NCBI GenBank assembly: GCA_035221665.1
Contig: CM069133.1
Location: 44,826,001 to 44,890,000 of the forward strand
Direction of reading: 5' to 3'
Source: Okamejei kenojei
Lineage: Eukaryota
DNA length: 64,000 nt
Shown: in pieces, positions 6,846-58,097 of the stretch
Layout: each line of letters begins with the position of its first letter
Numbering within the stretch: the stretch's first letter is position 1
Notes under the pieces: model-generated
The model's database searches: none
Told to the model about the DNA's origin: nothing
The model's input: only the letters and a program-made list of their open reading frames with translations
Position numbers and translations under genes: made by a program

Positions 6846-6859
6846 CTGTGTGTAAGTGC

Positions 6860-12145: not shown

Positions 12146-12170
12146 AAATATATTTATAATAATCACATAT

Positions 12171-14200: not shown

Positions 14201-14285
14201 TTAAACACAGAACTGTGTTTTAGAAGAGAAATGAAAAAAGGGAAGAGAGGAAAAGAAGGATACTATGATGGGTTGAGATGAAGTG

Positions 14286-20402: not shown

Positions 20403-20451
20403 ATGCTGTTTATTTTGCTTTGTGTCTTTGCACTGCCTGTCACCGCTGATC
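20403..20451 (+). CDS. Exon 1: signal peptide [16 protein letters not shown]
   Basis: ATG in context AGAATGC, hydrophobic leader, perfect donor C|GTAAGT in phase 1 that matches the exon 2 acceptor. Confidence 0.8.
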
Positions 20452-32400: not shown

Positions 32401-35400
32401 CTGTTAGTGTCACAATCCCACCTCTCCCAGCTCACCACGTGGTGAGGGTGACAAACAGCACAGCAAACATCGCAGCTCAACCGCCTTCCACAAGGGCAGG
32501 GACCCAGGGTGGGCGCAGCCTCCTACAGTGACTGTGGCCCTCAGATCAGTCTTAACGTTACATCTCTGTGTCTTCACAGGCTGCACTGTCAGTGGTTGGA
32601 ACATGCAGACACCGGACAAGGTGACGGGGAGGGTGGGGAAGCTCATGGTTCTGTACTGCAAGTTCACTCACCCTCACCATGAATACAAAGACAACATCAG
32701 CATCATCTGGAGTGAGAAGAATGCCAACAAGATCTTTTTCAAATACACAAATTATCTATCAAGCAACAAGTATAAAAATGTGATCATGAATAATGTAGAA
32801 ACTCGCTACAAACCAATGGGGGACCCGCGGAAGAACGATGCTTCCATAATCATTAATCAGCTGAGAAAGACGGATACAAACAAGGCCCTCAATTGTCGTG
32901 TTGAGCTCACAGAGCAAAACGGAGCAAATTTTGGATGCCCACATGGGCCTATCACAGTATCAGGTGAGGAATTATTGTAACTGAATGATTATTGTACTGT
33001 AAACTAATGATTTGCCTGTGATTCCGATGTCACTGGCATCGCAGACAATTGTTCAAGCTGTTGACTTGTTGGGTACATCACTGGGAGATCATGTCCTGGT
33101 TTGACCGCCTAAAATACAACACGTTGCACTAAACTGAATTTAACTCTATTAACCATCCCTCAACCCCACTTGACCCGCTGATCAACATCCTGCTGTCGTT
33201 TTTGATAACCATGTTCACTCATACTCCTCATTTCTGCCTTGACCATGATGTACAGTCACTGTGGAATGGGGTGATGTCATTGCCACATCTGGCCTGCTGT
33301 TATAGTCACATATTATGTCTCCTCCAGTTAAGTTTCAGATATTGGTATTGGTTTATTATTGTCTATTGCACTGAGATACAGTGCCATTTTTCCGAGTGCT
33401 ATCCTGACAAATCATACCATTGAGGCACTAGAAACTGCAGATGCTGGAACCATGAGCAAAACACAAAGTGCTAAAGACACAGTGGGTCAAGCAACATCGG
33501 TGGAGGAAATGGACAGGCAATTATCTGGGTGGGTTCCCTTCAAACTGATGGAGTAGTAGGGAGAAAGATGGGAATGGGGCAAAGCTTGCCCAATGATAGG
33601 TGGATGGAGGTGGAGGTGGGGGGGCATGGGGGAGGTGCCCATCAGATGGGTGGAGACAGTGATAATGGTGAGTGGTGGAAAGGAGACATAAAAGATGTCA
33701 GACAAGGAAACAAAATGTAAAGGCGGAGGCAAATGGATGTAATGGGTCAGGGGAGATGGGCAGGGGAAAGACGTGATAGAAGGAACTATGGGATTTGTGG
33801 ATGAGAGATGAATACGGGAGAAAAAAAGGAGCAGTGTGACAGGGATAATGGGAGCAAAGTGTGCACAGTGGGCTGGTGGGGGGGGGGGGGGAGTGGGAGG
33901 TATTATTTGAACTTTGAGAGTTCAGTGTTCATTACGGTTGGGTTACTCAAGCTACTCAAGCTGACCATGAGGTGCTGTTCTTCCAGTTTGTGTGTGCTCT
34001 CACGCTGATAATACACAAGGCCAGTGACAGTCAGGTTGGTGTGGGAACAGAAAGAGGAGTTAAAAAGCATAGTAACCAGGAGCTCCAGCAGGCCTTGGCA
34101 TGATTGGCAACCTGATAATCATGTTTCTCTCCTGCTTTTTTTCTGTTTGATGGCAATGTAACTATTGTAATCTTGTATTTAATACTTTCATCATTGAGCC
34201 CAGTGTCTCGCACTTCACTAACCATTGCCTCAATGTGTCACATTTGTTTTATTTAATTGTGTCTCGTAAGGAGTTTCTCCACATGTTCCTTGGCACCCTT
34301 TAGCATTGTTCTCCACTTCTACATATTCCATCTGCAATCTTGTTACAATTCAATGGAAAGTGAACATGTAGTAGAACATGCAGTAGAAAATGTAGTAGGG
34401 GTATACTACATCCACTGGATCCTCCCTTATCAATCCTGCTTGATATATTGTCTACCCTAACCCTAAACTTCACTTAAAGTGTCAACAGAACTTCCCCTTC
34501 ATCAAGAATTAAAACAGAAATTGCTGTAAAATTAATCAGGTCTGAATGCAAAGTCAACTGGAGGGGCGACATTATCAATGTAGGGAGATGTGTTGCTGCT
34601 ACTCAGGAGGATTTAATCTAGTTTGGCAGAAAGTTGGTAACTGGAGCAGGTGGAGCGTTTGAATGGGATGTAGACTTCAGCTTAAGACTGATCAGAAGGG
34701 CTGGCAGGGCCAGGTTAACGAACGCTATTTATAAAGAAGATGAAGTTACATATATAGTTACATTTCACCTCTCTAGAGCAGCGCTGGAGGGTCACGTACA
34801 GATGGGTCAGAGTGGGAGTGGGATGGAGAAACATGGTCACAGATGTGTAGGAAGGAACTGCAGGTGCTGATTTATACCGAAGATAGACACAAAATGCTGG
34901 AGTAACACAAAGTGCCAGGCAACATCTATGGAGAAATGGAATAGATTCTTCTTCAGGTCTGAAGAAGCGTTCCATTCAGAAACATCACCTGCTCCTTTTG
35001 TCCAGAGATGCTGCCTGATCCGCTGAGGTACTCCAGCATTTTGTCTATCATCGTGGTCACAGACACAGGTGAAGTATTGATGAAGAAAATGTGGTTAATG
35101 CGTTCGACCAATGAATAATGCCCATATTTTAAATCTTTCTCTATCCGAGGTGATGTCAGCGCATCCATGGTGATTGGGAAGAGAGGAGGTGGTGCCACAC
35201 TGAGCTGCCCCTTCAGTCGCTCGAGCGTAAAGAGCAAGGTGATCACTATCAACTGGATGAAGGGGACTCCATGGGGAGAGTCCGTTGTCTTTAATTTTAC
35301 CCGCCCCTACCCCACAGGTGGCCACGGCACTGTCAATGTAAATATAGGAGGTCGATATGAGCTGGTGGGAAGCCTAAACAAGGGAGACGCCTCCATCAGA

Positions 35401-38400
35401 GTGAGGGGACTCACGTTGAATGACACCAACGACTATTTCTGTCATGTTTGGACCTGGAATTCCCCTCTGAATAAAGATATTCAGGTGACTCAGGATGAGA
35501 CGGGACTACAGGTTTTGGGTAAGGAAACAGTCAGTGTTGAGGAGTAAATGATAAAATCACATTGAACAATGGTAAGCAGAATGAGCTTCGTTCTGTTTCA
35601 TCTCTGAATATTTCACTCCATTCTCCTGCTGGGTCTCTTTCAAATCTTCACACCTTCCTGGTTCTCCCCCTGCACCAATGAATAACAGTGAATGTAATTG
35701 ACTTTTATCCCTCTCTAGGCTTCAGCCACCATCTTGGAGCAATCGTGATAATGTATCTGGAGATACCTGTGTGTGCGGGAGGGAATGGGCAGGTTGATCA
35801 TTTGAGCTGCCATTTTTTGAGTCTACTTTCTTGTGATTGGCTTCACTTTCTAGTGTTAAACATAGGTGGACATCATGTCCAATCTCCATTGCTGGTGTTC
35901 ATGGGAGATCATGGGACCTCCAGTGACATTGTTGTCAGCCTCTGGTTCTGGTAATGAGGGAGGGGAGAAGAGAGAGTAACTCAGGTGTGAGTGATCCTTG
36001 ATTATGTTGGCTGTTTTCCCAAGGAATAAATGCAGTTGATGGGCGGGGGAATGAGGGAAAACCTTTTACTCGATCTACATGGTTAATCCTGAGCTTTCTG
36101 TTGCTTGTAATCTTAATCATCCATGCAATTCCCCCTCTGACTATTTTTTGTGATTTTCTTATAACCAGTCTAATGCAATTTGAAGAACAGGGCTCACTGC
36201 ATCATTCCAGATTGCATTGAATTCAAGAATTTTGGATGTTACTTTTTCTCTCTTTACTCAGAACTAACCAGCTCTACTGAAGATCAGCAAACTGGAATAT
36301 TAATCAGTTATTCTCTCAACGATTATTGCAACTTAAAATAAGTTAGCTGAAGTTGCAGGGGTTGTATAGAGGGGCGGATTGGAAATAGGAAATATCTCTG
36401 AAAGGGTGAGTCTAGGTTTGCTGTTGATGAAATTATCTGGTTGATAAATTAAAGAAGAAAGCTGGAGACAGAGAACACAAACAAAGATATAAACCAGAGC
36501 TGCAAAATGCACGTCAGAGCTGCAAGAAACACCCTGCAGATCAGGCAGTGTCAGTGGAGAGAGGAGACCTGAGTCAGTCTTGCAGATGGATAACCTGCTG
36601 CAGAACTTCTGATAAAAACAGCGAGAAAGTTACCAGAAATTGTTGTATTCAATGTTGACTCAATGATTCATTGGATCAACCTTGAATAGAACAATTTCTG
36701 GTGACTTGCTCGCTGTTTGTATCAGAACTGGCGGGTTCTACCACATCTGCGATACTGACAGTTCTCCTGAAGAAGAGTCATGACCCAAAACGTCACCCAT
36801 TCATTCTATCCAGAGATGCTGCCTGCCCGCTGAATTACTCCAGCATTTTGTGTCTATTTTCGGTTCAATGATTTCTTTATTATCACATGTACCAAGTGCA
36901 GTGAAATACTTTTTTGCATACAGATCAGTAAGAATATCACCTTACATAAATAAGCACAATCCCCCCCGGTTAGTACATAATGTACAGAAGAATCCACTGA
37001 GTCTGGGCAACAGTTGCCATTTTGCACCATTTTACAGTCCTAGTTGCAGTGGCCATAGAGGCCCATTGCAGCCGCCGCTTCTATTCCAGTTGTCCTGGAA
37101 TGTTGACCCTCACCTTGCACAGCCCTCTTCAGCCCTTCTTCCCCACGGGCGGTGTGTGGTGGGGGGGCTTCTCCCGCAGATGAGATTAAGGTGCGGAAGT
37201 TAAAAACCCCTCCACCCCTCCTGATTCGGTTGACCATGCCATTTCTGGTTGGCTGTCAGTTACTAGCAGAGTTCCGCAGGGTTTGGTGCTTTGGCCGCTG
37301 CTCTTCACGTTGTATATTAATGATTTGGATGAGGGGATTGAAGACTTTGTGGCCAAGTTTGCGGATGATACGAAAATAGGCGGAGGGGCAGGTAGTGCAG
37401 AGAAAGCAGGGTGTCTGCAGAAGAACTTGGATAGGTTGGGAGAGTGGGCAGAGAAGTGACAGATGGAAAAGTGTGGAAAAGTGTGGAGTCATGTATTTTT
37501 GTAATAGGATTAAAGGCGTTGATTAATTTCTAAATGGGGGAGAGAATCCAGAATTCGGAGGTGCAAGGCGACTTGGGAATGCTCGTGCAGGATTCCCAAA
37601 AAGTTAATCTGCGAGTCGATTCAGTTGTAAAGAAAGCAAACAAAATGGGATGTGGAGGAGATGTTTCCATTAGTGGGATAGTCTAAGACGAGAGATTTTA
37701 GCCTCAGAATTAAAGGACGTCCTTTTAGGAAGGAGATGAGGAGGAATTTCTTTGGTCGGAGTGTGATGAATCTATGGAATTCTTTGCCACAGAAGGCTGT
37801 GGAGGCAAAGTCGGTGGATATATTTAAGGCAGAGATAAATCGATTCCTGATTAGTGCGGGGTGTCAGAGGTTATGAGAAGGCTGGAGAATTGAGTTAGGA
37901 GAGATAGATCAGCCGCGATTGAATGGCGGAGTAGCCTTGATGGGCCGAATGGTCTAATTCTACTCCTATCACATATAATTGTATGAACCGTGCCTCCGTA
38001 GATGAGCTTATGGTGCAGACCCTAAGACCCCCACCCCACCCAACCTGATTCAGCTACCCACGCCTTTAGCCATCCTCCTCTCTGGTTCCTCATCTTCAAG
38101 GTCAAAGCTCAATGGGAGCCATGAAGGCTCCATCTTGTCCAGACTAAAGCTGAGATGTCTTTAGTTCAGATTGGCCCTTAATAGAATACTGCAGGAGGTC
38201 AGGAACAGATGGATCAGAGTGGGAATGGGATGGAAAATCCAAGTCACAAATGTGGATGAACTATTGATAAAGACCGTGTGGTTATTGTATTCAATTACTA
38301 AATCATATTCACACTTTAAAACTCTTCTCTATGCAAGGTGATAATGACAGAGCATCCATGGTGATTGGGAGGAAGGGTGCGACTGCCACACTGCCCTGCT

Positions 38401-41400
38401 CCTTCAGTCCCTCGAACAGGAATCCCAGCTCCATCACCATCAGCTGGATGAAGGGGAATCCATCAAAATGGTCTGTTGTCTTTCATCACACTTCTCCCCG
38501 CCCAGCAGCACATCGCATTCCTGTAAATGTAAATATAGGGGATCGATATGAGCTGGTGGGAAACCTTACGCAGGGAGACGCCTCCATCAGAGTGAGGCAA
38601 CTCAAACTGGGTGACGCCAGCGATTACTCCTGTCACGTTTCTGTCAGGAATTCAACGTTGATGACTGTGACTCAGGATGAGATGAAACTGCAGGTTGTGG
38701 GTAAGGAAACGTAAGTTATGCTGTAAACGATAATATCATATTGAACAACCTTAAGAGGAATGAGCTCCCACTGACAGCGTAGACCAGCACAGGAACAGGC
38801 CCTTTGGCCCGCAATGTCTGTACCAAACATGATGCTACGTTAATCTCATCTACCTGCAGGTGATACATTTCTTCCATTACCTGCATTTCAAAAAGCCTCT
38901 AAAACTCCACTATCATAGCTGCCTCCACCTCCACCCCTAGCAGTATTTTCCTGGCACCCACCACCCTCTATGTAAACAATAACTTTCCCCAAATATCTCC
39001 TTTCATCTTTTCCCCTCTGTCCTTATCACAATGCCGTCTATTCATTGACATTTCTGCCATAGGCAAAGGATTCTGACTCTCTGTCCTATCCATGTCTTTC
39101 ATATTTTTATAAACTTTCGACAGTCCAGAAAAACAGTTCAAATATGTCCGACCTTTTCTTATCACTAATACCCTCTAATCCAGGCAGCATTCTGGTAAAC
39201 CTCTTCTGAACCCTTTGCAAAGTTTCCACATCCTTCCTGTAATGGGTGAGAACTGCACATAAAACAGAATGCAATAATCCCAGTGTCGTAACTAAAGTTA
39301 TATAGAGCTACAACATGACTTCATGACTTGTATTCAGTAGATAGACACTAAATGCTGGAGTAACTCACCGGGGACAGGCAGCATCTCTGGAGAGAAGGAA
39401 TGGATGACGTTTCAGATCGAGTATCTTCTTCTTGACCCGAAACATGACCCATCCTTTCTCTCCAGAGATGCTGCCTACCCAGCTGAGTTACTCCAGCTTT
39501 TTGTGTCCATTTTCAGTTTTAACCAGCATCTGCAGTTCCTTCCTACACTTCTTGTATTCAGTATCTTGACCAATGAAAGCAAGCATACTGTACACGTTTT
39601 TAACATGTTGCCATTTTCAGAGAGTTATGGAATTGGATCCCAATATTTTTCTGTACATCAGTAATTTTAAGGGTCTTGCCCTTGTCTACTTTCCACTTGC
39701 ATTCAACCTCTCAAAGTCAACACTTCACACGTGTTCGGATCAAACTCCATCTGCCATTTCTCTGCCTATATCTGTATTTAGATTAAAAATTGCAGTATCT
39801 TTCTACAGTTCTACAGTTATCTGCCTTCCTCATGATAGTCTTGCACTTTCAATAAGCACACTACAGACCATGCGTGGGTTTGATATTTGAGCTGCCACTT
39901 ATGTGGACTGTACTCTTGCAATTGACTTCACTTTCTCATGTTTGAACAGAGGTGAACGCCACTGTCTCATCTCTAATGTCACTGTTGACAGCAGTCTTGT
40001 GCCATCTCCAGTGATATTGTCATCAGCCTATGGTTATGGTGGTATGGGTCAGGTGATATTGACTTCTGAGGCAGTTCTGGCCAGTTCTTGTACAAACAAT
40101 AAAGGGCCTGTCCCTCTTTGGTGACAACTGAAGACAACTGAAGACTTCTCTTGATGCCGGTAGCTGTCGCCGGTTGACGTAGGTTGACTTAGGTAGTCGC
40201 CAATTGAATTCACCGAAGTCAGCACCGGCGACAACCTACGTTATCCTGGCAACAACCTACGACAGCACCTACGTCAGGAGAAGACAAGCTACGAGAAGCC
40301 CAAGGTTGCCAAGAGTCGCCGAAAAGTTTAGACCATTTCAAAATCCAGCGGTGATCAGAAAAACGTTACGACTCTTTAGGCGACTTGAGGAGACAACTCA
40401 CAACCATACAGATGATACCCGGCGACCGTGTGGCGACTGCCCAGTCGCATGTAGTGGCCTAAAAAAAATCGCGTAAGTTGGACAGGCCTTAAGCAAGTTA
40501 TTGAAATTGTTGCTTTAAATGTTAGCACAAAGGCTTCATGCTGCCCAGACAGAAGATGAGGTGCCGTTGCTTGAGATTGGGCCTCGTTAGAACAGTGCAG
40601 GAGGTCTGAGACAGACAGATCAGAGCGGTAGTGGGATGGAGAATCAAAGTCACAGGCATGGATGATGTATTTTTATAAACCATGTGGAATAGATTGTTAA
40701 ATACAGCTTTTGTCTTTACAAGATGGAAAGAAGAAGACACCCATGGTGATTGGGAAGAGAAGAGATTCATCCATACTGCCCTGCTCCTTCAGCCCCTTGA
40801 ACAAGAATACCAGCCCCATCACTGTCCGCTGGATGAAGGGGAATCCACGGGAGGAGTCCACAGTTTTTAATCACACCCACCCCCACTCTGTGAACCGTCC
40901 CTACACTGTCACTGTAAAGGGAGGAGGTCGATATGAGCTGGTGGGAAAACTAGACCAGGGAGACGCCTCTATCAGAGTGAAGGAGCTCAGAGTGAACGAC
41001 AGCAGTGACTATTTCTGTCACGTTTGGGTCAGGAATTCCACACAGGAGACGGTGACTCAGGATGAGATGAAACTGGAGGTTGTGGGTAAGGAAGATCTGT
41101 CTGTGTTGTGCTGTGAACGATAAAATCACATTAACAACTGTAAGAGGACATGAGATCCACTGACAGCTGGAGCCGAGATCGGCCCACTCCATTGTAGGTT
41201 CCAACCCTTGCCCTGGGCTTCCCTTGCTCAGCACTGCCCCCAGTGGTTGGACAACAGTGCTGATTCCAGCCAGAATGCACGGAGCTCCCTGCAGCAGGAT
41301 CAGAGATTCAGAACCACATTCATCTGCTGAACCTCCAGTCCCTGTGTCTGTGACATGGTCTGTGTTGCAAAGATCCACAGACTGCCCTGGGGTATTTACA

Positions 41401-44400: not shown

Positions 44401-47400
44401 CTGGGGAAAGTAGTTAGGGAGCAGCTGCTCTTGGGACAAGTTTGCATCAGGAAGTGAGAGTGATTTAATGATGAGAGGTTGTAAATTTAGTCTCTAAGGA
44501 AAAGGATGCATATGCAAAGTTTAAGGAACTGAAATTAGGCAGGGCCTTTAAGGAAGATTATGAAAAAGGAAAGGGAATTATGAGGCCCAGATGGGTTAGA
44601 GCTGAAAGTAGAGAAGTGTGCTAAAGGAGGAGAGTGGGAGAGGTTACAAGAGGGAATTCTCACAGAATACTTTCCTGTGTCTTTGACAGGTTCACAGCAG
44701 CGTGTGTGTTGTGTTGATGCCAGCGTGGCCAATGGTCGGAAACCACAAGGACCAGAGCCAGGTAATTGGGGAATCTGCTTAAACTTCCTTTCACATTGAG
44801 GACATTCTTTGGAAAAGCAGAACTGAAACCTGCATTTAATAACTGGCCTTTCAATTGTCGCTACCACCTACCCTCCTTCCCTACCTCCCATAGCCTCCTA
44901 ATTAGATCAGCAAAGACAATCCCTCTCAGAGCAAATCGGGTTGTGTGTTCAAGTGGAATATTAATACTTAAAAGACTCGCCTCAAGGCCCAGGGCTTGCA
45001 CTAAGATTCCAGATTCCTCAGTCATGGGAATTAATCTATTCTGTCAAACATACTGGAAGTATTTAATATTGGATACCTGTCCTTAACTCTAAAGATTGAA
45101 GGTCCAACCTATTTAATCTCTTTGTCATCCCAGAAACCAGCCTCATGAACTTTTGCTGCACAACCTGCAAAGTAAGTACAGGTAGTTCTGCTCAACATAG
45201 GTTTCGAAATTTTAAATTGGCCACAACAGGATTGCTGAAATAGGTAATGCTATTATGCAGCCTGAATTGGTTATAAAGTAATCTCTATCAGAAAGTAGAG
45301 ATCCAGTTAAAAGTTACTTAGGAAAGCAGAAAAAAAGCATGTTCATGTAACCTCTCTGCAGTAATAGTAAGATTAAACAAGAACTTACCAGTTTGAAGTT
45401 TGATCTTTATTTTATGAGGCGTTACGATGAGGGATTACGTGAAGAACACCGTCCAGCCGTTGGTGCATCAATCTTCAAAGCAGCGGAGTGAAATCACAGG
45501 TAATAATGACTGAAGTATAATAGTACGATAACAGAGACTAGAACTACTAGATGATATTTATGAGGGTTGGGAGCGGAGGGCACGTAATCCCTTATCATAA
45601 ATTGAGAAACTAATGGATGTGTCCCTACTGAATGTAACTCTGAACTCATGGGTAAATAAGAAGACAGAGCACTTCTGGCTGTATTAATCGCACTATAGCT
45701 TAATTTTTGATCAAAGTAAAGAGTGGACAAAAACTCCAGTACGTCTGGGATGCCTGCAATTTGATGTGAGATATTCTGCTGTAGACAGAATACATCCCAC
45801 TTCCTTATCGAGGTGATGTACTGCTTCTGAGTACTATCCCTACAGGCCTACATGAGAACATCCATGGTATGATCAGACAGTCCTCTCCCCAGGTATGGCC
45901 TCCTTAAAATCTGCAAATTAACAGATCAATACGATCATGTAAAGGATGTTGATCGCCAGTTACTGGATTTACCAGTAGATTTTTACATTTGGGAATAATC
46001 ATGTGAGGCTGACAAGCAATTTGCAATACGAGAGGGAACCATGGTTGTGTAGGCTAATCTGGTACTACCAATACTCCTAAAGCGGAGTCCTACTTAATTT
46101 TTTGCAAGCATCGACTGATGAGACAGAATGGAGGAAATGCATCAACAAACATTCCACCCCAATGCAGTGAGAATGCATCCACCGCTGCTGCACCAGGATC
46201 TGGTTCCCATGAAACATATCTGGGCAACTGATGGTTTAGTCTAGATGCAAACAAGTCTATATCTGGCATTCCATACTGAGCAACCACTTGATTAAATATG
46301 TCCTGATTTAACATCCATTCTAAGTTATCATCGAATTGGCGTGACCTAATGTCAGCTACTGTGTTGAATCTACCTGGTAAATATATTGCTGAAAGCCAGA
46401 TGTTTTGGTCAATGCACCAGCCCCAGATCTGATTAGCCAGTCTATCACAAGACTGTGACTTGACTCCATCCATGTGGTTTACATATGCCGTTGCTGTAGT
46501 GTTGTCAATCTGAACCTGCACCTGCAAGTCACTCCTGGCAGAGCAATAAGCTTTAAGCCCATACCAGGTTCCCAAAAGCTCTAAATAATTGATCCCTCTT
46601 AATTGAAGAAGGGATGTCTCATTAGTATTCCATCTGCCTCCACAACTGGAAGACATATCTGTAGCACCCCAACCCAGCGCACTGACATCCGTCTGTAATA
46701 TTATGGAAGGTGGTTAAACCAAAACCTCCCTGGAGCTTTTTGAGACATTTATGATCCACCATTGAATGTCTGAAATTGCCCCAGCTGACAATTGCATAGG
46801 CCTATCAAAATGACCCGCATGTGTCCTCAGTGCCTGTTCTTTTGCTCGTTGTAATTGTTGATAATGCAGAGGTCCAAACTGCACAGCTGGAAAAGCAGCC
46901 ACCAATTTACCAATTAAACTGGCTACTTGGCTAATTGAAGGTCCTTGTTCACTAAGGAGATTAACACAATCCTCAATTAACTGCTGCCATGTGTCCCTGG
47001 GCAAAGTCACTAACATGTGATTCAAATTAATGGTAAAGCCCAAATAATCAATGATTTGAACTGGTGACCATTTGGATTGCCATTAGGCAATGCTATACGT
47101 CCCCCAGTCTTTTTAGACCTAGGAAAAATACTTTATAGAATCATAGAATCATTGAAAATAGGTGCAGGAGTAGGCCATCAGCCCTTCGAGCCTGCACTGC
47201 CATTCAGTATGATCATGGCTGATCATCAAACTCAGTTCCTAGATTATTTACCAAATTGTTAAAACCTGTTCTAGGATTACTCCAAGCTCAGGGGCATGTT
47301 GTAATGGCCCATTTAGATGATATTTTAATTGTCGGGAAGACTCGGGCTGTAGCTGAATCATCTGTTTCAATTGTTAAACTCACTTTTGAACAATTAGGGT

Positions 47401-50400
47401 TCATCATTCATCCAGATAAATCCAACTCAGTATCCTGTACCTGCCTTCTCTCCATACCCCCTGATCCTTTTAGCCACAAGGGCCACATCTAACTCCTTCT
47501 TAAATATAGCCAATGAACTGGCCTCAACTACCTTCTGTGACAGAGAATTCCACAGACTCACCACTCTCTGTGTGAAAAATGATCTTCTCATCTAGGTCCT
47601 AAAAGACTTCCCCCTTATCCGTAAACTGTGACCCCTTGTTCTGGACTTCCCCAACATCGGGAACAATCTTCCTGCATCTAGCCTGTCCAACCCCTTAAGA
47701 ATTTTGTAAGTCTCTATAAGATCCCCCCTCAATCTCCTAAATTTCAGCGAGTACAAGCCAAGTCTATCCAGTCTTTCTTCATATGGAAGTCCTGCCATCC
47801 CAGGAATCAGTCTGGTGAACCTTCTCTGTACCCCCTATGTGGCAAGAATGTCTTTCCTCAGATTAGGAGACCAAAACTGTACGCAATACTCCAGGTGTGG
47901 CCTCACCAAGACCCTGTACAACTGCAGTAGAACCTCCCTGCCCTTGTACTCAAACCCTTTTGCTATGAATGCCAACATACCATTCGCTTTCTTCACTGCC
48001 TGCTACACCTACATGCCTATTTTCAATGATTGGTGTACCATGACACCCAGGTCTCGTTGCATCTCCCCATTTTCCTAATCGGCCACCATTCAGATAATAG
48101 TCTACCCTCCTGTTTTTGCCGCCAAAGTGGTTAACCTCACATTTATCCACATTATACTGCATCTGCCATGCATTTTCCCACTCACCCAACCTATCCAAAT
48201 CACCTTGCAGCCTCCTAGCATCCACCTCACAGCTAACACTGCCCCCCAGCTTCGTGTCATCCGCAAACTTGGAGATGTTGCATTAAATTCCCTCATCCAG
48301 ATCATTAATATATATTGTAAATAGCTGGGGTCCCAGCACTGAGTCTTGCGGTACCCCACTAGTCACTGCCTGCCATTCTGAAAATGACCCATTTACTTCC
48401 TACTCTTTGCTTCCTGTCTGCCAGCCAGTTCTCTATCCACATCAATACTGAAGACAATACTGAATTTTCTATCCACATCAATACTGAACACTTGACACAA
48501 ACTGACGGTTTTGACGAACTGACTTCTCAATAACCCCTTTTTTGTGTAATGTGTTAAGTTCTGCTTGTATGTGCACATTCTCGTCTTCTGAAAATAGAAG
48601 TTTCTGATTTGGAACATGCTGATTATGTGAGCACACAGTAGAGTAAAATTCAATTTTAACCCCCTCTATACTGCTCCGTATAAATGAATCTGATGTTATC
48701 TCCTGCCATTGTTTGAGAAACAAGTGTAATCTGCCCCCAATTTGAACATCTATTTCACTTGATTTATTTTCTTTAGGAGGAAAATTTCTCACCTGCATAC
48801 ATCCTGGCTGCCCTTGTTGCCCCCGGCCCTTTGTAGGGAAAGTCATCCTTCCCCTCAAGCCTGAGGCAGGATGCCAGCTCCGAGATTGCTAAGCTGAGTG
48901 GCTGGTCCCTTCCCCGGCGTCCGTAATGGTACCCCGCCGGAAAGGAAAAACCTTTTTTCCTAGTTTGCCACCCGGCTTGATGAGGCCCATAGTTCTAGCA
49001 TCCTCATGGAGTTCTTTAACTCGCTTGGCGAGATCCCCGCCAAAGAAAAGATTAGACGGTTCTACGCTGGGCGCCTTACACAATGATGCCAGATTAGGAT
49101 TAATAATTGGCCGAATAGCACTTCTTCTTATATTGTTAATTTCAAAATAGGCACTACACAGATGTCCCAGTGCATCTTGGTGAGCTTCCAACATATGCCC
49201 CTTGTCTACCATAATAGCAAATGGTGTAAGCCCTGCTGAAAGTAATTTCAATACTTCTTGAAATTTTAGTTCTTGGGATCTTGCTGACACCCCCAACTGT
49301 GTCCATATGAGATGGTTTACCATTGGTACTTTTAGTAAACCACAATTGATAGGGGCTTCATACTTTTTAGCCGCCTCATCCATGGCCAATGCTTGCAGCT
49401 GATGAGAGAGCATATATTGGATGGCTGATGCCAATTCTTCCCCTAACGTCTCTCCTGCCTTTCTCGGGACTGCAAATTTCTCCGCTATATTTGGAATAAC
49501 TTTAAGTTCCACTCCCTTGTGCCACTGATTCGGCGTCAGTAAACTGCTGCACCGGTATACCCTCCTCCTCAAAGGTTGGGTATTCTTGCAGCCCTATTAT
49601 AAGTGCTGCTAGCAGAGGCTCTCCACTAGCCTGGTGTGGGCACCACTCCTCCTCACGGAGTTCGTCCCTGTCGAGCATCTTTTGTAATAAGACCTCGACC
49701 TGGGAGAGCCATGAGCAAACGATCTTTCCTTGTGAGGGTAAAACCTCCAGACCCGACTCTTGGTCCACGGGCCTATTTGATTTTGCAGTAGCCTTACTCC
49801 CTACCGGCATGGCTACGCTGCTCACAGGCAGCGGGTCTGGTGTCGCTAGCTCCATTGCTGACATTGGACTTGGTGACCTAGGCGGGCATCCGCTAACAAT
49901 ACTATCACGGTCCTTGAACCTTTTCCCTGCAGATCGCCTCGCCGACACCTTCTTCACTTTCTGTAACATTTTAACAGGCTACACCCTACCGCTAAAACAG
50001 AAAGTGAACGCAAGAAAAGTTTGAAACTTACCTTGTGTTTTAAACTAACTTTAGGAGCTCTGCTGCTCCAACCGGCCGACTGCTCCAATGCGTCTGACGT
50101 AATGACACACCAACGGCTGGACGGGGCTCTTCACGTAGTCACTCACGTGACTCCGAAGTAAAATCAGTTACCACTGTCTCTTATGAATGCAGATCATCAT
50201 GGGGTGGCCAAGCAATCATTTCAATTGACATTTGTGCAGTGATACTCTATTAAACAATGTAACATTGAGCCATCAGTACTTGTAGATTGCAGCTACAAAA
50301 ATAAACTTGGACCTATAGAAAAGATCTTTGTTTTTAAAAAATCAGTGGGCGAAATAACATTGTTATTGCAAGTCTCATAATCACTAGCCCCTTAACTCCA

Positions 50401-53400
50401 TTTTCACATTGTGTTGGTCTTGAGTCCTTGTAATAATAAATACCTCACACCTTGGCAGGTTATACACTGTTTATTTAGAATAAAGAACTACAAGCTCTTA
50501 CTTGAGAGTTAACTTCATACTGAAGAGTGCAGTAGCTCGCGACGCTAATAAGCTAGTGCAAATAAGCGTAACGACAAAAGCATGACTCATAACGAGCCAC
50601 TGATCTGCACATTGGCACAATTATTTTCAGAATGTAATTTTCTACAATAAGATGTTCCTTAAGAATGCAGCATTCGTGGTATAGCTGAACTGTCTGTACA
50701 TTGCTTTTTGGGGTAAGGAGACCAATATTATACCTAATACACCAGCTTTGGTCTTGAAAGGCCAATGTAATTTGGAATTGATCCTATTATTCCCAAAGTA
50801 ACAATACCTGATCAATGTATCTCATAGGTTTGCACAAAGAACCTCATCTATGTAACCCTCCACCACCCCTGAGGATAGGGTTGGAAAGTTCTGCATGTTG
50901 CGATTACTCCAGGATTCCCTTCTGTTTTATCTACAGTTTTGACCCTGTGGGAGGGGATGAGGTGGACAGTTTGGGAGCTCTAATTTCTCTATTAAAATAC
51001 CCATTGTTTTTTTGTGTCTTTGACAGGTTCACAGGAGCCTGAAGGGGACCCTATTTACAGTGTTGTTGATTTAAACATGGAGACAAGAAACAGGGCAGCC
51101 ACCCAGGCAGTTCCAACACCAGGAGAATTGGACAGGAATGTTGGTGAGTGCAGTGATGGTGATCATTTGGAATTTGCACAGAGGTAACCTGGAGGAAGAG
51201 ATGCAGGAAGTAAATGCCAGCTTTCATGATCCAGCTCCTGTGGTTAAAAGTTGTAATTTTATGGATACAGCATGGAAATAGGCTCTTCCGCCCACTGAGT
51301 TTATGCCAACCATTGATCATACTTTCACACTAATTCTATATCAACCCACTTTCTCATCTCCTTGGATCTTTGGGGCAATTTTACAGTCCAATTAACTCGC
51401 ATATCTATGAGGTGGTGGAGGAAACTGGAACAGCCGGAGGTAACCCGAGCATTCACGGGGACAAACACAGACTCTATACCAACAACACCCAAGCTCAGAA
51501 TTGAACCCAGATCTCTGGTGATGTGTTGTGGTGCAACTGGCAGAGCTGCTGCCTCACAGCGCTTGAGACCCGTGTTTAATCCCAACCTTGGGTGATATTA
51601 GTGTGGAGTTTGCACATTTTACCAGCTGTGCCACTGTCGTTGAGCAAGGGAACTCCTATTGATCTGAGAAACAAAGAGGAGATGTTTCTGAGGCAAGCTG
51701 GAGTAGGTAGAGATCCCAAGGTTAGCAAAGTGGACCAGCTTACAGACAATCTTCACACTGAGATGCCCCCGAGCTGGAGCCAGTGGAGGTCAATGGAGCG
51801 TAGTGTACAGATTAAAACTCATGTAAGCGGTGACAAGGCGGGAACTATTTAAGATAGGGACAAAGTTTCAGCAGCAGAAGTGTTTGGAGTGGGGCTGGGG
51901 GGAACATACAGTATCATGGATGTAGAAATTAGAGGCATTAGAGTGAGAAAAACTTGACTAAGCTCCCAAAGCATCTTTGCAGAATGGATTTGAGAAGATG
52001 CTTGGTCTTGTGAGCAAACCTGGAACGAAGAATTACTGTTCACAAGTAAGGGTCACCTACTTTAAGATGACTTGATTTTTGTTCCTTAGATCAACTGTCT
52101 TTGGAACTCTCTTCCTCAAAAGATTAAGTTTTGAATATTTTGAGCCAGAGATAGATGGAGAATATCTGGAAACAGAAATATCTGGAAACCCACAACAGGT
52201 CAGGCAACCTCTGTGAAAAGAGAAAGCACCAACATTTGTGCTGGACACACCTTTGTCAGACTTTTCATGCTCTTTAGGAGCACAGGGGTGAACGTTTAGC
52301 ACAGGAGATATCAGTCATGATGTCATTAAAAAGCAGAGCTGAGTGGTTGATTCTTGCTCTCAACTTGTATTCAAAGGTTACAAAGGACTTTTATTGTCAC
52401 GTACCATTTAAGATACAGTGATATGCAAATTATCATACTGCCATACAAGAGACACAATTACATAAAAGTAAACATCCACCACAGCAGATTCCCTACTTTC
52501 CTCACTGTGATGGAAGGCCAAAAAGTCCAATCATCATCCCCTTTAAGGAATATAGGAGTGAAACCTTTCCTTGCAAACACAGGAGATACAAACCTATCCC
52601 TACATCTCATCCCTTACATCCATCCAGGAACCTCCAGCAGTCCTTCCAGGTGAGACAGAGGTTCACCTGCACCTCCTCCAACCTCATCTACTGCACCTGA
52701 TGTGCCCTCCTTTCCATTGGCGAGACCAAATATAGCTTCGGCGACCGTTCCACTGAACACTAACTCTGTGCAACAAGATCTGCTGGATTTCTCTGTTGCT
52801 ATGCATTTTAACTCCCCTTCCCATTCCCACCCTAACCGCACTGTCCTGGGCCTCCTCCATTGTCAAAGTGATACCATACACAAACAGCACCTCATAATCT
52901 ACTTGGGTCATTTACAACCTAACGGTGTGAACATTGAATTCTCCAATTTTAGGTAACTTACCAACAAAACCCATCTCCACTTCTCCCCACCCCCTTCCCA
53001 CCCCACCTTTCTCTTCTCTATGCCCCATCACTACGAGCACCCATTTTAATTCTTCCTCTCCCCTTCCACCCACATTCATTCCTCTGGCTTCACAATTCAC
53101 ATATATCCTTATCTCTCACCTTGAGTCTTTCACCTCTGGCCACTGTTCAACCCACCTGCCAATCAAATAACCCCTTCATGTGTAGGGAACAGTGAACACA
53201 TGGTGAGCAGCAAAACACTGCCAGTCCCAAGATTCGCGCCTCCAGGGTCTTGTCAATATTCTATTTTTCACCTGCAGGGAAGTAAAACTGCAGAAAAGGG
53301 AGTAGGGTGAAAGGAGAAGGGAGAGATTGGGCTGTCAGGGCTTGGGCTGGGGGGGAGAGAGACAGTTGGACAGTTACAGTTTTACACGTGTACCGAGGTA

Positions 53401-54612
53401 CAGTGAAAAGCTTTTGTTGCGTGCCATCCAGTCAGCAGAAAGACAATACATGATTACAATCGAGCCATTTACAATGTATCGATACATGATAAAGGGAATA
53501 ACATTTAGTGAAAGTAAAGCCAACAAAGTCTGATCAAGGACAGTCCGTGGGTCACCAAAGAGGGAGATAGTAGTTCAGGGGCTACGATTGTGAGGTTAAG
53601 ATAGCAAGGCGATGAAGTTGTGCAATAAATTTGTGTCCTTTCCAGATTCCTGTGACTCTTCAGATGCCCTCATTTACAGCATTGTTCACATTCAAAGCCG
53701 TTCCCGAGTAGGAGTGGAGATGGGTAAGGAACAGTCAGCACACGGTGAGCTGTGAAACAACAGTAGCAGTGTGGACGCTCCATGCAAAATAGTGTCCTCA
53801 ACAGGCTGGGAGGCAAACCCTTGATGTATTGATTAGAAACATCCACTGGCATTGACAATACACACTGGGCTTCCCATCGAGCCTGTGATCCTGAGCTCTC
53901 CATATCCAACATTCAGGGAAGGTGCAGCAAAGACCAGACATAGTGGAAGCAGTAACAAAGACCCAGGACATAGAGTTACTAGAGATCCTGGTGTTGTTTA
54001 TTTTCCACTTCCCATCATCGGGCAGCCAAGCATCAGACCTGGAAGTACAATGCTGTCTGTTCTGCAGTACATTTCTGTATCTATAGAAGCAGCGAGGGTT
54101 CTCTTGGGCTTGCCATGTATCACAATGAGGGGTGAAGAACAGTCTTGGCAAAAGATGGACCACTATAGGAAGGGCAATTGGAACAGGCATGAGACAGCGA
54201 TTATCAAAGGTGGGGACTCATGGAGTCATACAGCACAGAGACAGGCTCTTTGGTCCAACTTGCTCAAGCCAGCCAAAATGCCCCATCCACACTAGTCCCA
54301 ATTGCCTGCATTTGGCCCATATGCCTATACACCTTTCCAATCAATATACCTGTCCCAATGTCGTTTAAATGGGAGTGGGTGGTTTGTGATAAAAAACAGT
54401 GGGGAAGAGATGCTGGAATGCAATAACAATCTGTGTTCTTTTCAGACCCCCAGGAGTCTCAGAATAACACTCTCTATGGCAATGTGCACATTCAAAGACC
54501 TCCCTGCAAAGAGGAGGAGACTGGTAAGGACCACCGAACACACCGTGAACGGCAAAATACACACATCTGCGAAGACACCGCTTGGGAACACATCAAACCC
54601 ATTTCATACTGA
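20403..54612 (+). CDS. Spliced Siglec-15-like type I IgSF receptor (SP-V-V-V-V-C2-TM-cytoplasmic ITIM/ITSM). Join 20403-20451, 32580-32963, 35150-35518, 38338-38700, 40723-41085, 41740-42114, 44690-44761, 51027-51143, 53646-53723, 54446-(54523 donor or 54612 stop)
   Basis: All exons are bounded by AG/GT, all junctions are phase 1, internal exon lengths are multiples of 3 (384, 369, 363, 363, 375, 72, 117, 78, 78) and there are no in-frame stops. Domain order is that of a type I receptor. The 3' end is uncertain. Confidence 0.85.
22833..23738 (-). mobile_element. 5'-truncated CR1 inserted in L1 ORF2
   Basis: (gaaacata)n tail; [14 protein letters not shown]. The L1 QTGFIPKRQS coding sequence resumes across it, with TATA on both sides. 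Confidence 0.92.
26061..30682 (-). mobile_element. Full-length DIRS1-group retrotransposon (gag ~30476-29285, RT/RNase H ~29310-27500, tyrosine recombinase ~27509-26590), ORFs frameshifted
   Basis: [13 protein letters not shown]; RNase [12 protein letters not shown] and PDIDLF; [11 protein letters not shown] and ILATAGW. Inverted terminal repeats and an internal complementary region at ~26281-26395. Confidence 0.95.
32311..32378 (+). repeat. Short tandem duplication at the L1 5' junction
   Basis: agtctgatagtgga occurs three times; cagcaggagtctgatagtgga occurs twice. Confidence 0.8.
32580..32963 (+). CDS. Exon 2: N-terminal V-set Ig domain, Siglec-15-like, retains the sialic-acid-binding Arg
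   Basis: Acceptor ttcacag, donor G|gtgag. Motifs [25 protein letters not shown] and CRVEL parallel my recollection of Siglec-15 (VLPCTFTHPH, GNPRRNDLSL, YFCRVEF). Arg codon at 32897-32899. Confidence 0.9.
33425..34110 (-). mobile_element. Degenerate Penelope-like 3' fragment
   Basis: gaaactgcagatgctgg end and gagttcagtgttcat...gaggtgctgttcttcc, reverse-similar to the PLE fragment at ~52555-53180. Confidence 0.65.
34850..35050. repeat. Palindromic Penelope-derived short repeat with hammerhead-like core
   Basis: gatagacacaaaatgctggagta ... tactccagcattttgtctatc inverted arms; ctgaaga...gaaac at ~34959-34983. Confidence 0.65.
35150..35518 (+). CDS. Exon 3: V-set Ig domain 2
   Basis: ATLSCPF...INWMKG...RYELVG...GDASIRV...DTNDYFCHV. 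Acceptor ccgag, donor G|gtaagg. Confidence 0.9.
35608..35770 (+). pseudogene. Truncated relic of a C2 exon and its acceptor intron after V2
   Basis: ag|gcttcagccaccatcttggagc...gataatgtatctggaga resembles the exon 6 start ag|tcccagccaccatcctgaagc...gacaatgtaactggaga. Upstream intron aatatttcactccattctcct matches aatatttcactgcagtctcct at ~41619. Confidence 0.65.
37240..37985 (+). mobile_element. CR1 LINE degenerate 3' fragment
   Basis: VPQGLVL, INDLDEG and KFADDTKIG remnants plus CR1 3' UTR. Confidence 0.85.
38338..38700 (+). CDS. Exon 4: V-set Ig domain 3
   Basis: ATLPCSF...ISWMKG...RYELVG...GDASIRV...DASDYSCHV. Acceptor gcaag, donor G|gtaagg. Confidence 0.9.
38775..39330 (-). mobile_element. 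Old CR1 3' fragment
   Basis: cagcacaggaacaggccctttggccc tail and aatccaggcagcattctggtaaacctc. Confidence 0.7.
39338..39545. repeat. Palindromic Penelope-derived short repeat
   Basis: gctggagtaactca...ggcagcatctctggagag ... ctctccagagatgctgcc...tgagttactccagc inverted arms. Confidence 0.75.
40103..40489. mobile_element. Non-autonomous PIF/Harbinger-type MITE
   Basis: TIRs agggcctgtcc / ggacaggcct flanked by TAA at 40100-40102 and 40490-40492; internal gtcgcc/ggcgac repeats. Confidence 0.75.
40723..41085 (+). CDS. Exon 5: V-set Ig domain 4
   Basis: SILPCSF...VRWMKG...RYELVG...GDASIRV...DSSDYFCHV. Acceptor tacaag, donor G|gtaagg. Confidence 0.9.
41740..42114 (+). CDS. Exon 6: C2-set Ig domain plus transmembrane segment
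   Basis: [16 protein letters not shown]...GKYTCVAVN, then hydrophobic [20 protein letters not shown] and a KK stop-transfer. Polypyrimidine acceptor, donor G|gtgagt. Confidence 0.9.
42210..43480 (+). mobile_element. Two degenerate CR1 3' fragments
   Basis: [13 protein letters not shown] remnant (ggttaggccacatttggagtat) and RTRGHSLRI remnant (aggaccagagggcacagcctcagaata). Confidence 0.7.
43680..43920 (-). mobile_element. HE1-like V-SINE
   Basis: Reverse complement of the SINE head and body: tgtgggaggaaacc, gatcgaacccggg, gtaaggcagcaa. Confidence 0.75.
44690..44761 (+). CDS. Exon 7: cytoplasmic, [24 protein letters not shown] (no Tyr)
   Basis: Acceptor tgtgtctttgacag|GTTCACAG is identical to that of exon 8. 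Donor G|gtaatt; 72 nt, phase 1-1. Confidence 0.65.
45363..50164 (-). mobile_element. Second DIRS1-group retrotransposon (different subfamily) in intron 7, internally deleted and rearranged
   Basis: Same outer termini (aatagtaagattaaa... and ...ctcacgtgactccgaagtaaaat). Gag ORFs 49969-48889; RNase [25 protein letters not shown] and AFPPF. The ICR is truncated at ~45600. Confidence 0.92.
47137..48488 (-). mobile_element. 5'-truncated CR1 inserted in the DIRS RT
   Basis: tagaatcatagaatca tail; [17 protein letters not shown] and [13 protein letters not shown]. Confidence 0.92.
51027..51143 (+). CDS. Exon 8: cytoplasmic, [39 protein letters not shown] (ITIM-like)
   Basis: Strong polypyrimidine acceptor, donor G|gtgagt, 117 nt, YxxV motif. 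Confidence 0.8.
51265..51620. mobile_element. Two opposed SINE remnants
   Basis: Minus copy 51265-51515 (ggaggaaactgg, gaattgaacccag) and plus head 51530-51620 (gagctgctgcctcacagcg). Confidence 0.6.
52555..53180 (+). mobile_element. Penelope-like 3' fragment (GIY-YIG endonuclease region)
   Basis: [29 protein letters not shown] and [10 protein letters not shown]. Confidence 0.8.
53646..53723 (+). CDS. Exon 9: cytoplasmic, [26 protein letters not shown] (canonical ITIM LIYSIV)
   Basis: Acceptor tcctttccag, donor G|gtaagg, 78 nt. LxYxxV at 53669-53686. Confidence 0.8.
54446..54612 (+). CDS. Exon 10: cytoplasmic, [26 protein letters not shown]... (ITSM TLYGNV). Ends at donor 54523 or reads through to TGA 54610-54612
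   Basis: Acceptor ttcttttcag; TxYxxV at 54469-54486; internal donor G|gtaagg gives a 78-nt exon, like exon 9. Confidence 0.75.
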
Positions 54613-54614
54613 GT

Positions 54615-56370
54615 GGGCTCAGCACCGATCCCTGTGAGACACCACTAGTCATAGGCCCCTGGTCTGAATAACAAACCATCACCACCACCTTCCACCAAGC
54701 CAAATTCATATCCAATTGGCTCATTAACCCTAGACCTCATGTGATTTAATCTTCCAGACTAGTAAGCCATGTGAGAACTTGGCAATGGCCTTGTTAATGC
54801 CCATGCAGGCCATGTGTACCAGCTCTGCCCTCGTCAACAGATTCATCGCCTCGTCAAAAGCTCAGTCAAATTCATGAGTCACACACAAATTCCACACACA
54901 AAGCCATGCTAACTATCCCTCATCAGTCGTTACCTTTCCAAATCCGGGTACATCCTTGTACATCCTTGTAAAGCTCGTACTAAGCTTCCCCCAGTCTAGT
55001 TTCAGTCAATAAGATACTGAGTCAAGCACTTGCGTATGTAAACTTTATTTTGGAAAAACACAATAATAGTTACCCACTATAATACATAACCACCGTGGGT
55101 TAGATCCTTGTACCTGCTTGGCCAAGCCCTCCTAGCCTCGTGCAAGCAGAGACTCTCCAAAAGGTCACGCAGTCCTAAGCGTTCGCCCCGAAGATTGACA
55201 CAGGACCTCGTGGGAGCTACATTTTATAGTTCCCCGAAACTTGAGGGGCTGGACCATATGGGGGTGGTCTCTTTACAGTCCAATAACAGAGATCAATTAA
55301 CACAATGCATGATAGACATTTCCCTAACCTAATAATATATTAACCAATACATTGTATTCAAACGGAGCTTCTGGAAGGAAGCAAACATAGCAACATTTGT
55401 CCAGATATTCAAGAAACCCAGACAAGGCTCAACACTTAATCCAATCAACATCTAGCAAAGTAAAGCGTTGTAACAATATTTACAATGTGTATATCTGGTT
55501 TGCATTCACCCAATCCGTTTCATGCAATTTACACCTAATTGTAAGAATCCGCAGAAGTCCCATTCTTTCCCTGCAACTCTTACCTGGGATCTTGACAAGC
55601 TGGCACCATTCTGCAGCTTGGCCCATTTCTGCAGAAGGCACATTTAAATTGACCAAATGGCCTAGCAGCCCAGAAGCCTTTACACAATTTTAATGTCCTG
55701 GCATCTCCAGTTTGGCCAGAATTAACATCCTGACCCTCAAAATCCCCTCCAGTAATTCCCTCACCACTACAGGCTCACCGGTCTGTAGTTCCCACTCTTG
55801 TACTTGCAGACCTTCTTAAATAGGGGCACAACATTACGCACCCTCCAATCTTCCGGTACCACACTTGTGTTAAAGATGATGCAAATGCCTCTGCCAGAGC
55901 ACTTGAAATTTCTTCCCTAGCTTCCCACAAGATCATAGGATACACCTGATCAGGCCTTGGACATTTATTTACCCTAATATGTCATAAGACTGCCAGCACC
56001 TCTTTTGTAATATAGACATGTTTCAATGTATTGCAATTCAATACTCTTAATTCCTTTACTTCCATTACCTTCTCCACGATAAATACAGATGAGAAATGTT
56101 AATTTAAAACCTCGCCCATCTCCCATGGATGACCATGTTGATCCTATTCTCTTTAGTTAACCTTTTGCTCTTAATATACTTTGAGAATTTCTCTGCATTC
56201 TCCATTATCTTATCTGCCATAGCTATCTCATTTCCCTTTTTTGTCTTCCTGATTTTGCTCTAAATTGTAAGCCTACACCCTTTATACTTGAGAAGTTTGC
56301 TTGATTGCCAGCTGCCTATATCTGACATATGCCCCTTTTGCATGACTAATGCCTCAATATCCTTCATCAA
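54615..56370 (-). mobile_element. Old CR1 ORF2 fragment interrupted by a solo LTR
   Basis: cagcaccgatccctgtgagacaccactagtca (VTSGVSQGSVL reversed), cacaaagccatgct (QHGFV) and acacctgatcaggccttgg. Confidence 0.7.
54967..55727 (-). mobile_element. Solo LTR (ERV/Gypsy type), ~760 bp, 4-bp TSD TCCT
   Basis: TGTAAA...TTAACA termini; TCCT at 54963-54966 and 55728-55731. Minus-strand TATAAAA (~55222-55228) lies upstream of AATAAA (55044-55049). The CR1 resumes on both sides. Confidence 0.75.
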
Positions 56371-58097
56371 TCATGTTGAATAGCAGAACAGTCTTGAGTG
56401 GCTGAACTATTCCATACATTCTGCAGACAAGATTCCTCAGACAGTAGCTTGGCTCTGTGTAGTCGGCTGTCAACCAAAGGACATAGGCTTAACTCAAGAA
56501 CCAGATGATGTAGGTTTATTGTGAGAGCTAAAAGATATAATAGGAAAAAGAGGAGCAACTTTTTCACACTGAGGGTGGTGGTCAGATCTACCAGAGGAGG
56601 GTAGTTGAGGAAGGTACTATGACAACATTTAAAATACATTTGGTCAGGTACATGGAAAGGAAAGGTTTAGAGACATATGGGCCAAATGTGGGCAAGTGGG
56701 GTTAGTGTAGATGGGCATCTTGGAAGGTATGGGCAAGTTGGGCCGAAGGGCCTGTTTCCAAACTGTATGACTGACTCTATGCTGATGATCCCGGTCTCAG
56801 GGGTTTGGATGGATGATGGGGGGAAGGGGTCAGTGTGGCAGCAAAGAGCTTTGGAATGGGGCAAGTTCCCTCCGGCAATGAGAAGACTAAGATTACCCAC
56901 AATAAAGAGGAGAGACTCTCTGACAACCTGGTTCTCTGATGGGTGAGAGGGCCTGGCCTTGCTCAAACTGGGTTGAATTCAAGCAATTATCTAATATTGA
57001 GAGGGCAGGTCCAGGGAAAGTCATTGAAGGACTAGAATACAAGGAGCCCAAAACTACCAGGATGACCATGTCATCGGTTTATCTTACGTAGAAACAAAGA
57101 AACATAGAAAATGGGTGCAGGTGTAGGCCATTTAGCCCTTCGAGCCTGCACCGCCATTCAATATGATCATGGCTGATCATTCAACTCGGCATCCTGTACC
57201 TTCCTTCTCTCCATACCCCCTGATCCCTTTAGCCACAAGGGCCACATCTAACTCCCTCTTAAATATAGCCAATGAACTGGCCTCAACTACCTTGTTCTGG
57301 ACCTCCCCAACATCGGGAACAATCTTCCTGCATCTAGCCTGTACAACCCCTTAAGAATTTTGTAAGTTTCTATAAGATTCCCCCTCAATCTTCTAAATTC
57401 TAGCGAGTACAAGCCGTGTCTATCCAGTCTTTCCTCATATGAAAGTCCTGACATCCCAGGAATCAGTCTGGTGAACCTTCTCTGTACCCCCTCTATGGCA
57501 AGAATGTCTTTCCTCAGATTTGGTGACCAAAACTGTACGCAATACTCCAGGTGTGGTCTCACCAAAACCGTACACAACTGCAGTAGAACCTCCCTGCTCC
57601 TTTACTCAAATCCTTTTCCTATAAATGTTAACATACCATTCGCTTTCTTCACTGCCTGCTGCACCTGCATGCCTACTTTCAATGACTGGTGTACCATGAC
57701 ACCCAGGTCTCGTTGCATCTCCCCTTTTCCTAATCGGCCACCATTCAGATAATAGTCTACTCTCCTGTTTTTGCCACCAAAGTGGATAACCTCACATTTA
57801 TCCACATTATACTGCATCTGCCATGCATTTGCCCACTCACCCAACCTATCCAAGTCACCTTGCAGCCTCCTAGCATCCTCCTCGCAGCTAACACTGCCCC
57901 CCAGCTTCGTATCATCCGCAAACGTGGAGATGTTGCATTCAATTCCCTCGTCCAAATCAATATATATTGTAAATAGCTGGAGTCCCAGCACCGAGCCTTG
58001 CGGTACCCCACTAGTCACTGCCTGCCATTCTGAAAAGGACCCTTTACTCCTACTCCATGTTTCCTGTCTGCCAGCCAGTTCTCTATCCACATCAATA

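Follow-up and report, generated by a model that had tools for sequence, protein, structure and literature searches.

How a receptor comes to carry several tyrosine-based signalling motifs in one cytoplasmic tail, and whether such motifs are switched in and out by splicing, is the question raised by a run of four short exons in the genome of the skate Okamejei kenojei. A first-pass annotation of this DNA read them as duplicated cassettes with one motif per exon and proposed that splicing tunes their output combinatorially. We analysed the whole 64,000-nt stretch (the window), reading positions 20000–64000 directly and covering 1–19999 through a list of open reading frames and scripts. The cassettes are exons 7–10 of a ten-exon gene on the + strand (Table 1). 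Joined, the ten exons give 749 stop-free codons; all of them have intact frames and splice sites, and all nine introns, together with the donor after exon 10, are in phase 1, the usual phase of Ig-domain exons. The borders of exons 7–10 are predictions from sequence, with AG/GT ends and lengths divisible by three, and exon 10 ends in an open frame. Judged by sequence, exons 7–10 are the predicted cytoplasmic tail of a skate type-I Ig receptor related to Siglec-15.

Table 1. Exons and pseudo-exons of the receptor gene, in window positions.
Feature	Position (strand)	Length (nt)	Characteristics	Matches
Exon 1, leader peptide	20403..20451 (+)		ATG at 20403; phase-1 donor	Rhinoraja P0001, 20313-20453
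Exon 2, Siglec-15-like V-set	32580..32963 (+)		CRVE arginine	Pfam V-set; PDB 7ZOZ
Exon 3, V-set	35150..35518 (+)		His replaces arginine	Pfam
Decayed C-domain/transmembrane pseudo-exon	35598..35952 (+)		intron 3' of exon 3; deletions, stops	
Exon 4, V-set	38338..38700 (+)		His replaces arginine	Pfam
Decayed transmembrane pseudo-exon	39880..40040 (+)			TM of short-tailed Rhinoraja paralogues (P0009, E 3.5e-4)
Exon 5, V-set	40723..41085 (+)		His replaces arginine	Pfam
Exon 6, C2/I-type Ig domain and transmembrane helix	41740..42114 (+)		helix uncharged	Pfam
Exon 7, membrane-proximal cassette	44690..44761 (+)	72	Ala at Tyr position; two cysteines	
Exon 8, PIYSVV cassette	51027..51143 (+)	117	YxxV	
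Exon 9, LIYSIV cassette	53646..53723 (+)	78	ITIM; alternative start 53664, alternative end 53744	
Exon 10, TLYGNV cassette	54446..54523 (+)	78	ITSM consensus and YxN; alternative end 54544	

The first V domain has Siglec-15 as its best PDB match (7ZOZ, E 1.1e-11; CD33, E 9.3e-6) and retains the N-terminal Trp, the FTHPH stretch and the arginine that in Siglecs follows the F-strand Cys/Phe, its CRVE being aligned to the CRVE of 7ZOZ. Passages of PMC7226832 describe the Siglec arginine (R143) as essential for sialic-acid binding and report that zebrafish Siglec-15 bound the tested glycans weakly. V domains 2–4 have His at this position. Siglec-15 itself consists of one V and one C2 domain with a short tail. 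The skate receptor has in common with it a C2-type domain before the membrane and the presence of lysine-TM paralogues within its family; it differs in having four V domains, one C domain and a tail of at least four exons, in an exon 6 helix that is uncharged and has no TM lysine (for DAP10/12 association), and in an exon 2 without the two mid-domain cysteines of 7ZOZ. By its architecture it is not a Siglec-15 orthologue, and we do not class it as Siglec-15 because a TM lysine, that architecture and the extra cysteine pair were each tested for and not found. Like the CD33-related Siglecs, it belongs to a tandem cluster that has inhibitory tails next to DAP-type lysine partners, and its first domain changes fast, whereas its V domain is nearer to Siglec-15 (E 1e-11 versus 9e-6) and its motifs lie one per exon. 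Fish genomes are without CD33-related inhibitory Siglecs according to passages of PMC7226832, which do not mention sharks. By analogy the skate receptor would work like a CD33-related inhibitory Siglec, and we file it neither there nor under Siglec-15. The MDIRs are likewise multigene activating and inhibitory Ig receptors of a skate, which passages of PMC3031540 describe as CD300/TREM/pIgR-like; exon 2 gave 9 PDB matches and exon 5 gave 24, and CD300, TREM and pIgR were absent from both sets.

The closest proteins come from the skates Rhinoraja, Leucoraja and Amblyraja, with exon 6 identities of 74–84% among the best-matching rows. In the first V domain 85/119 residues are identical to Leucoraja, against 19/20 to 35/38 in the tail, and this value lies below that of a read-through intron used as control (83–90%), which suggests either diversifying selection or paralogy. 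We rejected conservation of the tail among skates as proof of selection, since tail identity (85–96%) is no higher than that of the same intron.

Two decayed C-domain/transmembrane pseudo-exons sit 3' of V exons 3 and 4. The first resembles the start of exon 6 (score 114; 300 shuffles, mean 22, maximum 37) and is 72.7% identical to the second. The TM remnants of the two are similar to short-tailed Rhinoraja paralogues; against the TM exon of the present gene they scored 26 and 31, which is not significant beside shuffle maxima of 33 and 35. Possibly the gene acquired its four V domains by absorbing neighbouring V–C/TM gene units, the C/TM exons of which then died. We found no neighbouring gene of the family within the window.

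The regularities on which duplication of the cassettes had been proposed are present in the DNA. The Tyr codons of exons 8, 9 and 10 (TAC, TAC and TAT at 51056, 53675 and 54475) each begin 29 nt into the exon; the 11-mer common to exons 9 and 10, which are of equal length, and the 22-mer common to exons 7 and 8 each occur in their two exons and nowhere else in the window. In each of four leave-one-out profile searches, the omitted exon came first among the 3798 AG sites of the + strand and outscored every one of the 4180 sites of the − strand. Exons 8–10 scored 45.8, 39.2 and 25.3, and exon 7 scored a weak 6.6. No fifth copy was found in the window, the next-best profile score being −7.1 as against 67.8–80.0 for the four exons.

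This profile takes in the acceptor signal itself. The acceptor makes up part of the shared sequence, a point in favour of the alternative that common splice signals and a short Tyr motif arose by convergence in exons without common descent. Ungapped comparison of exon DNA by itself (67 nt; about 17 identities in 5000 shuffles) gave 38 identities for exons 9/10, 33 for 8/9 and 31 for 8/10 (p≤0.0004), and 27 for 7/8 and 26 for 7/10 (p 0.006–0.008), so that five of the six pairs exceed shuffles at p<0.01; pair 7/9, with 22 identities of 67 nt, is not significant (p 0.07). At the protein level only pairs among exons 8–10 are significant, the likeness of the exon 7 peptide to the other three being within chance (p 0.14–0.23), as convergence would have it. 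Aligning the exons pairwise with 150-nt flanks, the check that the first-pass annotation had suggested, upheld duplication for part of the set: pairs 9/10, 7/8 and 8/9 beat all 500 shuffles, 7/10 and 8/10 fell short of this, and the alignment of 7/9 was out of register. The likeness among cassettes fades beyond about 30 nt upstream of the acceptors, a further point in favour of convergence. Against it, an alignment of exons 9 and 10 that takes in both flanking introns shows 69% identity in 132 columns, with 25/40 nt matching 3' of the donor, and the extension into introns is, on this sequence comparison, the clearest sign of duplication. In the shark Heptranchias, moreover, the repeated cassettes are nearly identical to one another; the first of them has His where the Tyr would stand, and an ILYSSV motif occurs among them. 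Convergence is thus largely refuted for exons 8–10, and as an account of the whole set we hold it to be extremely improbable. Descent of the four exons from one exon as old copies is well supported by sequence, with strong homology for exons 8–10 and weaker homology for exon 7. The tandem duplication of a one-motif cassette is backed both by these window statistics and by relatives, whose tails show the same repetition.

The borders of the copies may have some play. Within exon 9 an inner acceptor lies in frame at +18, and both exon 9 and exon 10 offer an in-frame second donor at +21. The inner start of exon 9 matches both Leucoraja models, which reflects either use of this site or an 18-nt deletion in Leucoraja, and the full-length exon 9 is used in all three Rhinoraja tails. 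The longer end of exon 10 matches Rhinoraja P0001 (one of three Rhinoraja models), the shorter one P0170 and P0215. Given these alternative sites, the 29-nt and 78-nt figures may describe ancestral borders, with other borders perhaps in use too. For the greater length of exon 8 we considered a dead old donor at +60 and rejected it, just 15/36 nt matching the ends of exons 9 and 10. Across their acceptors (44676–44704 and 51013–51041), exons 7 and 8 agree at 27/29 nt, but elsewhere they are about 40% identical, and short gene conversion or splice constraint could account for this.

The motif strings read by the first-pass annotation (none, PIYSVV, LIYSIV and TLYGNV) are as it gave them, and their classes fare differently. 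Under the ITIM consensus (S/I/V/L)xYxx(I/V/L), as used in passages of PMC12151841 and PMC5856374, LIYSIV of exon 9 passes and PIYSVV of exon 8 fails. TLYGNV of exon 10 fits the ITSM consensus TxYxx(V/I) in the window, and its standing depends on relatives. We compared 12 relatives' tails, with cassette borders deduced from protein. Tails of the same kind occur in Rhinoraja, Leucoraja, Hemitrygon, Mobula, Narcine, Pristis, Heptranchias, Heterodontus and Callorhinchus, and the number of cassettes varies: skates have the same four, Hemitrygon and Mobula an additional YxN cassette between the exon 8 and exon 9 types, and Heterodontus and Callorhinchus fewer. Exon 10 has counterparts in nine of the 12 tails (three of the nine being Rhinoraja paralogues; Pristis and two Callorhinchus tails are without one). 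The full ITSM consensus appears in one of the nine; the residue at −2 is Thr in two and Ser in six. Because the Thr is so poorly conserved, the ITSM/SAP reading of exon 10 appears weak on sequence. YxN is kept in 6/9, and Grb2 prefers pYxN. Counterparts of exon 7 are clear in 7/7 batoid proteins tested (p 0.0002) and weak in Heptranchias (p 0.03), and were undetectable in three further proteins. The two cysteines of exon 7 lie near the membrane, and at least one Cys is present in six of the seven batoid counterparts; we guess that the skate's cysteine pair is a palmitoylation site.

The four-cassette description of the tail was correct and also incomplete, since it overlooked the motif exon that is most conserved. 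An IYAxV motif after the last cassette ends ten of the 12 relatives' tails and is the family's most conserved motif. It was not found in the window by tblastn, pattern search or peptide alignment; all six terminal peptides aligned over 54524–64000 scored within the shuffled range, one equalling the shuffle maximum. It is therefore conceivable that this lineage lost the terminal exon and now reads through after exon 9 or 10, leaving a truncated or decaying receptor whose cassettes are under no strong selection. Both Leucoraja models do finish by read-through into the intron, and read-through after exon 10 enters repeat-like sequence that is frameshifted between Leucoraja and the window. Yet the window extends 9.5 kb past exon 10, interrupted by an N gap at 61204–61335, the gene's introns reach 12 kb, three Rhinoraja tails retain the terminal exon, and the intact state of all ten exons is hard to square with decay. 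We consider truncation very unlikely; the terminal exon may be located outside the window or within the N gap, or may have been lost. The C-terminus of Leucoraja X1 was rejected as the true end of the protein, because in the window the corresponding DNA has a shifted frame, is interrupted by a stop and resembles repeats at 48332 and 57984. If present, the terminal exon would place one motif in every spliced form and so restrict how far skipping could switch the output.

The proposal that splicing tunes the tail began from the symmetry of the exons, and all 16 inclusion/skip combinations of exons 7–10 are indeed in frame and stop-free. In-frame skipping works, however, for any internal exon of this gene and not only for the cassettes. 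As the symmetry is gene-wide and a prerequisite for in-frame duplication, it is no evidence of skipping. We therefore turned to the long-tailed loci of relatives with more than one RefSeq isoform (four loci and ten isoforms, all automatic models, with some isoform numbers absent). Compared with X1, Heptranchias X2 is short of precisely one cassette, which has 24 residues and a YSII motif. Leucoraja LOC129695285, which belongs to a sister subfamily with two V domains, has an X3 that is without one 36-residue cassette and an X2 whose end is ten residues shorter. The isoforms of Leucoraja LOC129695366 differ solely in their end position, and those of Callorhinchus LOC103188797 solely in V number. 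Single-cassette skips thus appear in the models of two of the four loci, and two cassettes skipped together in none; in the closest relative the two isoforms compared, out of at least three, show no internal skip. Both single skips occur among near-identical neighbouring cassettes, where mis-mapping of reads can create false junctions.

What is at stake is whether regulated, combinatorial skipping lets one gene produce receptors with different SH2 partners (SHP-1/2, SAP or Grb2) in different cells. The in-frame combinations, the two single skips and the use of each alternative in-frame site of exons 9 and 10 in some relative's model all speak for it, as does the expression of an sh2d1a-like gene in bamboo shark T cells reported in a passage of PMC11372145. 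Precedents are available as well. PECAM-1 (CD31) has a tail on many short, alternatively spliced exons, and loss of its exon 14 abolishes SHP-2 binding (passages of PMC5664058, in which its exons are not described as tandem copies); its ectodomain is unrelated, and its splicing is demonstrated, whereas that considered for the skate tail is hypothetical. LILRB1 has a four-ITIM tail that loses one ITIM when exon 15 is skipped (passages of PMC12827074), but it belongs to another family, with MHC-binding Ig domains, and has primate transcript evidence. Splicing or exon exchange alters tail motifs in CEACAM1 and in Xenopus FcR-like paired receptors (passages of PMC2110893, PMC2832619, PMC5856374 and PMC2413239), and PMC5112662 likewise has passages on tail changes in the CEACAM and Xenopus FcR-like families. 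CEACAM1 differs in carrying ITIM and ITSM on one exon and in shortening its tail by frameshift rather than by in-frame cassette loss. The absence of double skips, the unskipped isoforms of the closest relative, the gene-wide symmetry, the risk of mis-mapping and the rarity of the full ITSM consensus count against a combinatorial system, and on balance we think one unlikely. Single skips are plausible, whereas a regulated combinatorial code is hypothetical.

The family around the receptor bears on how its tail might be used. Short-tailed paralogues with a tail of few residues and a TM lysine are common, and a TM lysine with a short tail is the Siglec-15/DAP12 layout described in passages of PMC7226832. 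By sequence, long tails with an uncharged TM beside TM-lysine paralogues mark this as a predicted paired-receptor family. The arginine is kept in six of nine long-tailed relatives and in two of 15 lysine paralogues from cartilaginous fishes; lungfish Siglec-15, the sixteenth row and a control, keeps it. Its loss in 3/9 long-tailed relatives and 13/15 lysine paralogues makes both sialic-acid binding and a shared ligand uncertain, and a common ligand for inhibitory and lysine-bearing members appears doubtful from these sequences. The sister subfamily (P0046, P0050, P0076, P0077 and P0139) has two V domains and no C domain, and its tails combine duplicated cassettes of their own (CTYASI) with the same YxAV motif at the end; duplication within tails thus occurred more than once in the cluster. 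Lungfish P0080 and P0090 are multi-V Siglec-15-like proteins, with seven and two V domains, and the expansion of V domains is thus not limited to cartilaginous fishes.

Based on these data, we propose that the gene encodes an inhibitory paired receptor related to Siglec-15 whose phosphomotifs recruit tandem-SH2 phosphatases, whose cassettes are mostly spliced all-in and whose cassette number is set genomically, an account that we consider probable. The tail would have grown as one phase-1 exon of about 72–78 nt, with a single Tyr-x-x-hydrophobic motif, was duplicated in tandem. The copies appear to be old, their order and flavour having been kept across skates and rays. The series begins with a dead spacer, continues with a PxYSxV, an ITIM and a YxNV copy, and is predicted to close with the terminal IYAxV exon. 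On the expressed receptor, the first V domain would bind the ligand, probably a sialylated glycan. As in known paired receptors, Src-family kinases would then phosphorylate the motifs, and SHP-1, SHP-2 or SHP-2L would dock on motif pairs; passages of PMC12151841 describe tandem-SH2 phosphatases as conserved to sharks, with SHP-2L as a third gene. The docked phosphatases would be expected to dampen the signal of the lysine-bearing activating paralogues. The usual transcript probably contains every cassette, minor forms arising from single skips or from alternative splice sites, and cassette number would shift mainly through genomic gain and loss between lineages. A more far-reaching version, in which cartilaginous fishes have their own paired Siglec system, derived from Siglec-15 and not from CD33, with cassettes specialised for different SH2 partners (phosphatase, Grb2-type, spacer) and regulated splicing by which one gene would span a range from inhibitory to activating, seems to us distinctly unlikely.

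The principle of paired receptors that lose ITIM exons by splicing is known from mammals, as is the layout of one motif per tyrosine exon in mammalian inhibitory receptors. The genes of the present family are already in RefSeq under automatic names. In the literature searched, which covered few subscription journals and whose supplements may list the family, we found no description of this family or tail and none of an inhibitory Siglec-15-derived arm in cartilaginous fishes; look-ups of terms for shark Siglecs in PMC13358205 and PMC13262535 gave nothing. At this locus the DNA still shows clearly how exon duplication gave rise to a signalling tail with several motifs: dead, ITIM and YxN copies stand next to one another, and copy numbers differ between lineages. 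It is also a pointer to an inhibitory branch of sialic-acid sensing, derived from Siglec-15, in cartilaginous fishes.

The window also contains pieces that look like mobile elements. Two related, broken retroelement copies lie on the − strand at about 45300–50170 (intron between exons 7 and 8) and 26050–30680 (intron between exons 1 and 2), and we take their ORF pieces to be DIRS-type-like. Broken reverse transcriptase/endonuclease pieces of several kinds, presumably LINE-like, occur at 20700–25400, 47100–48450 and 57100–63400.
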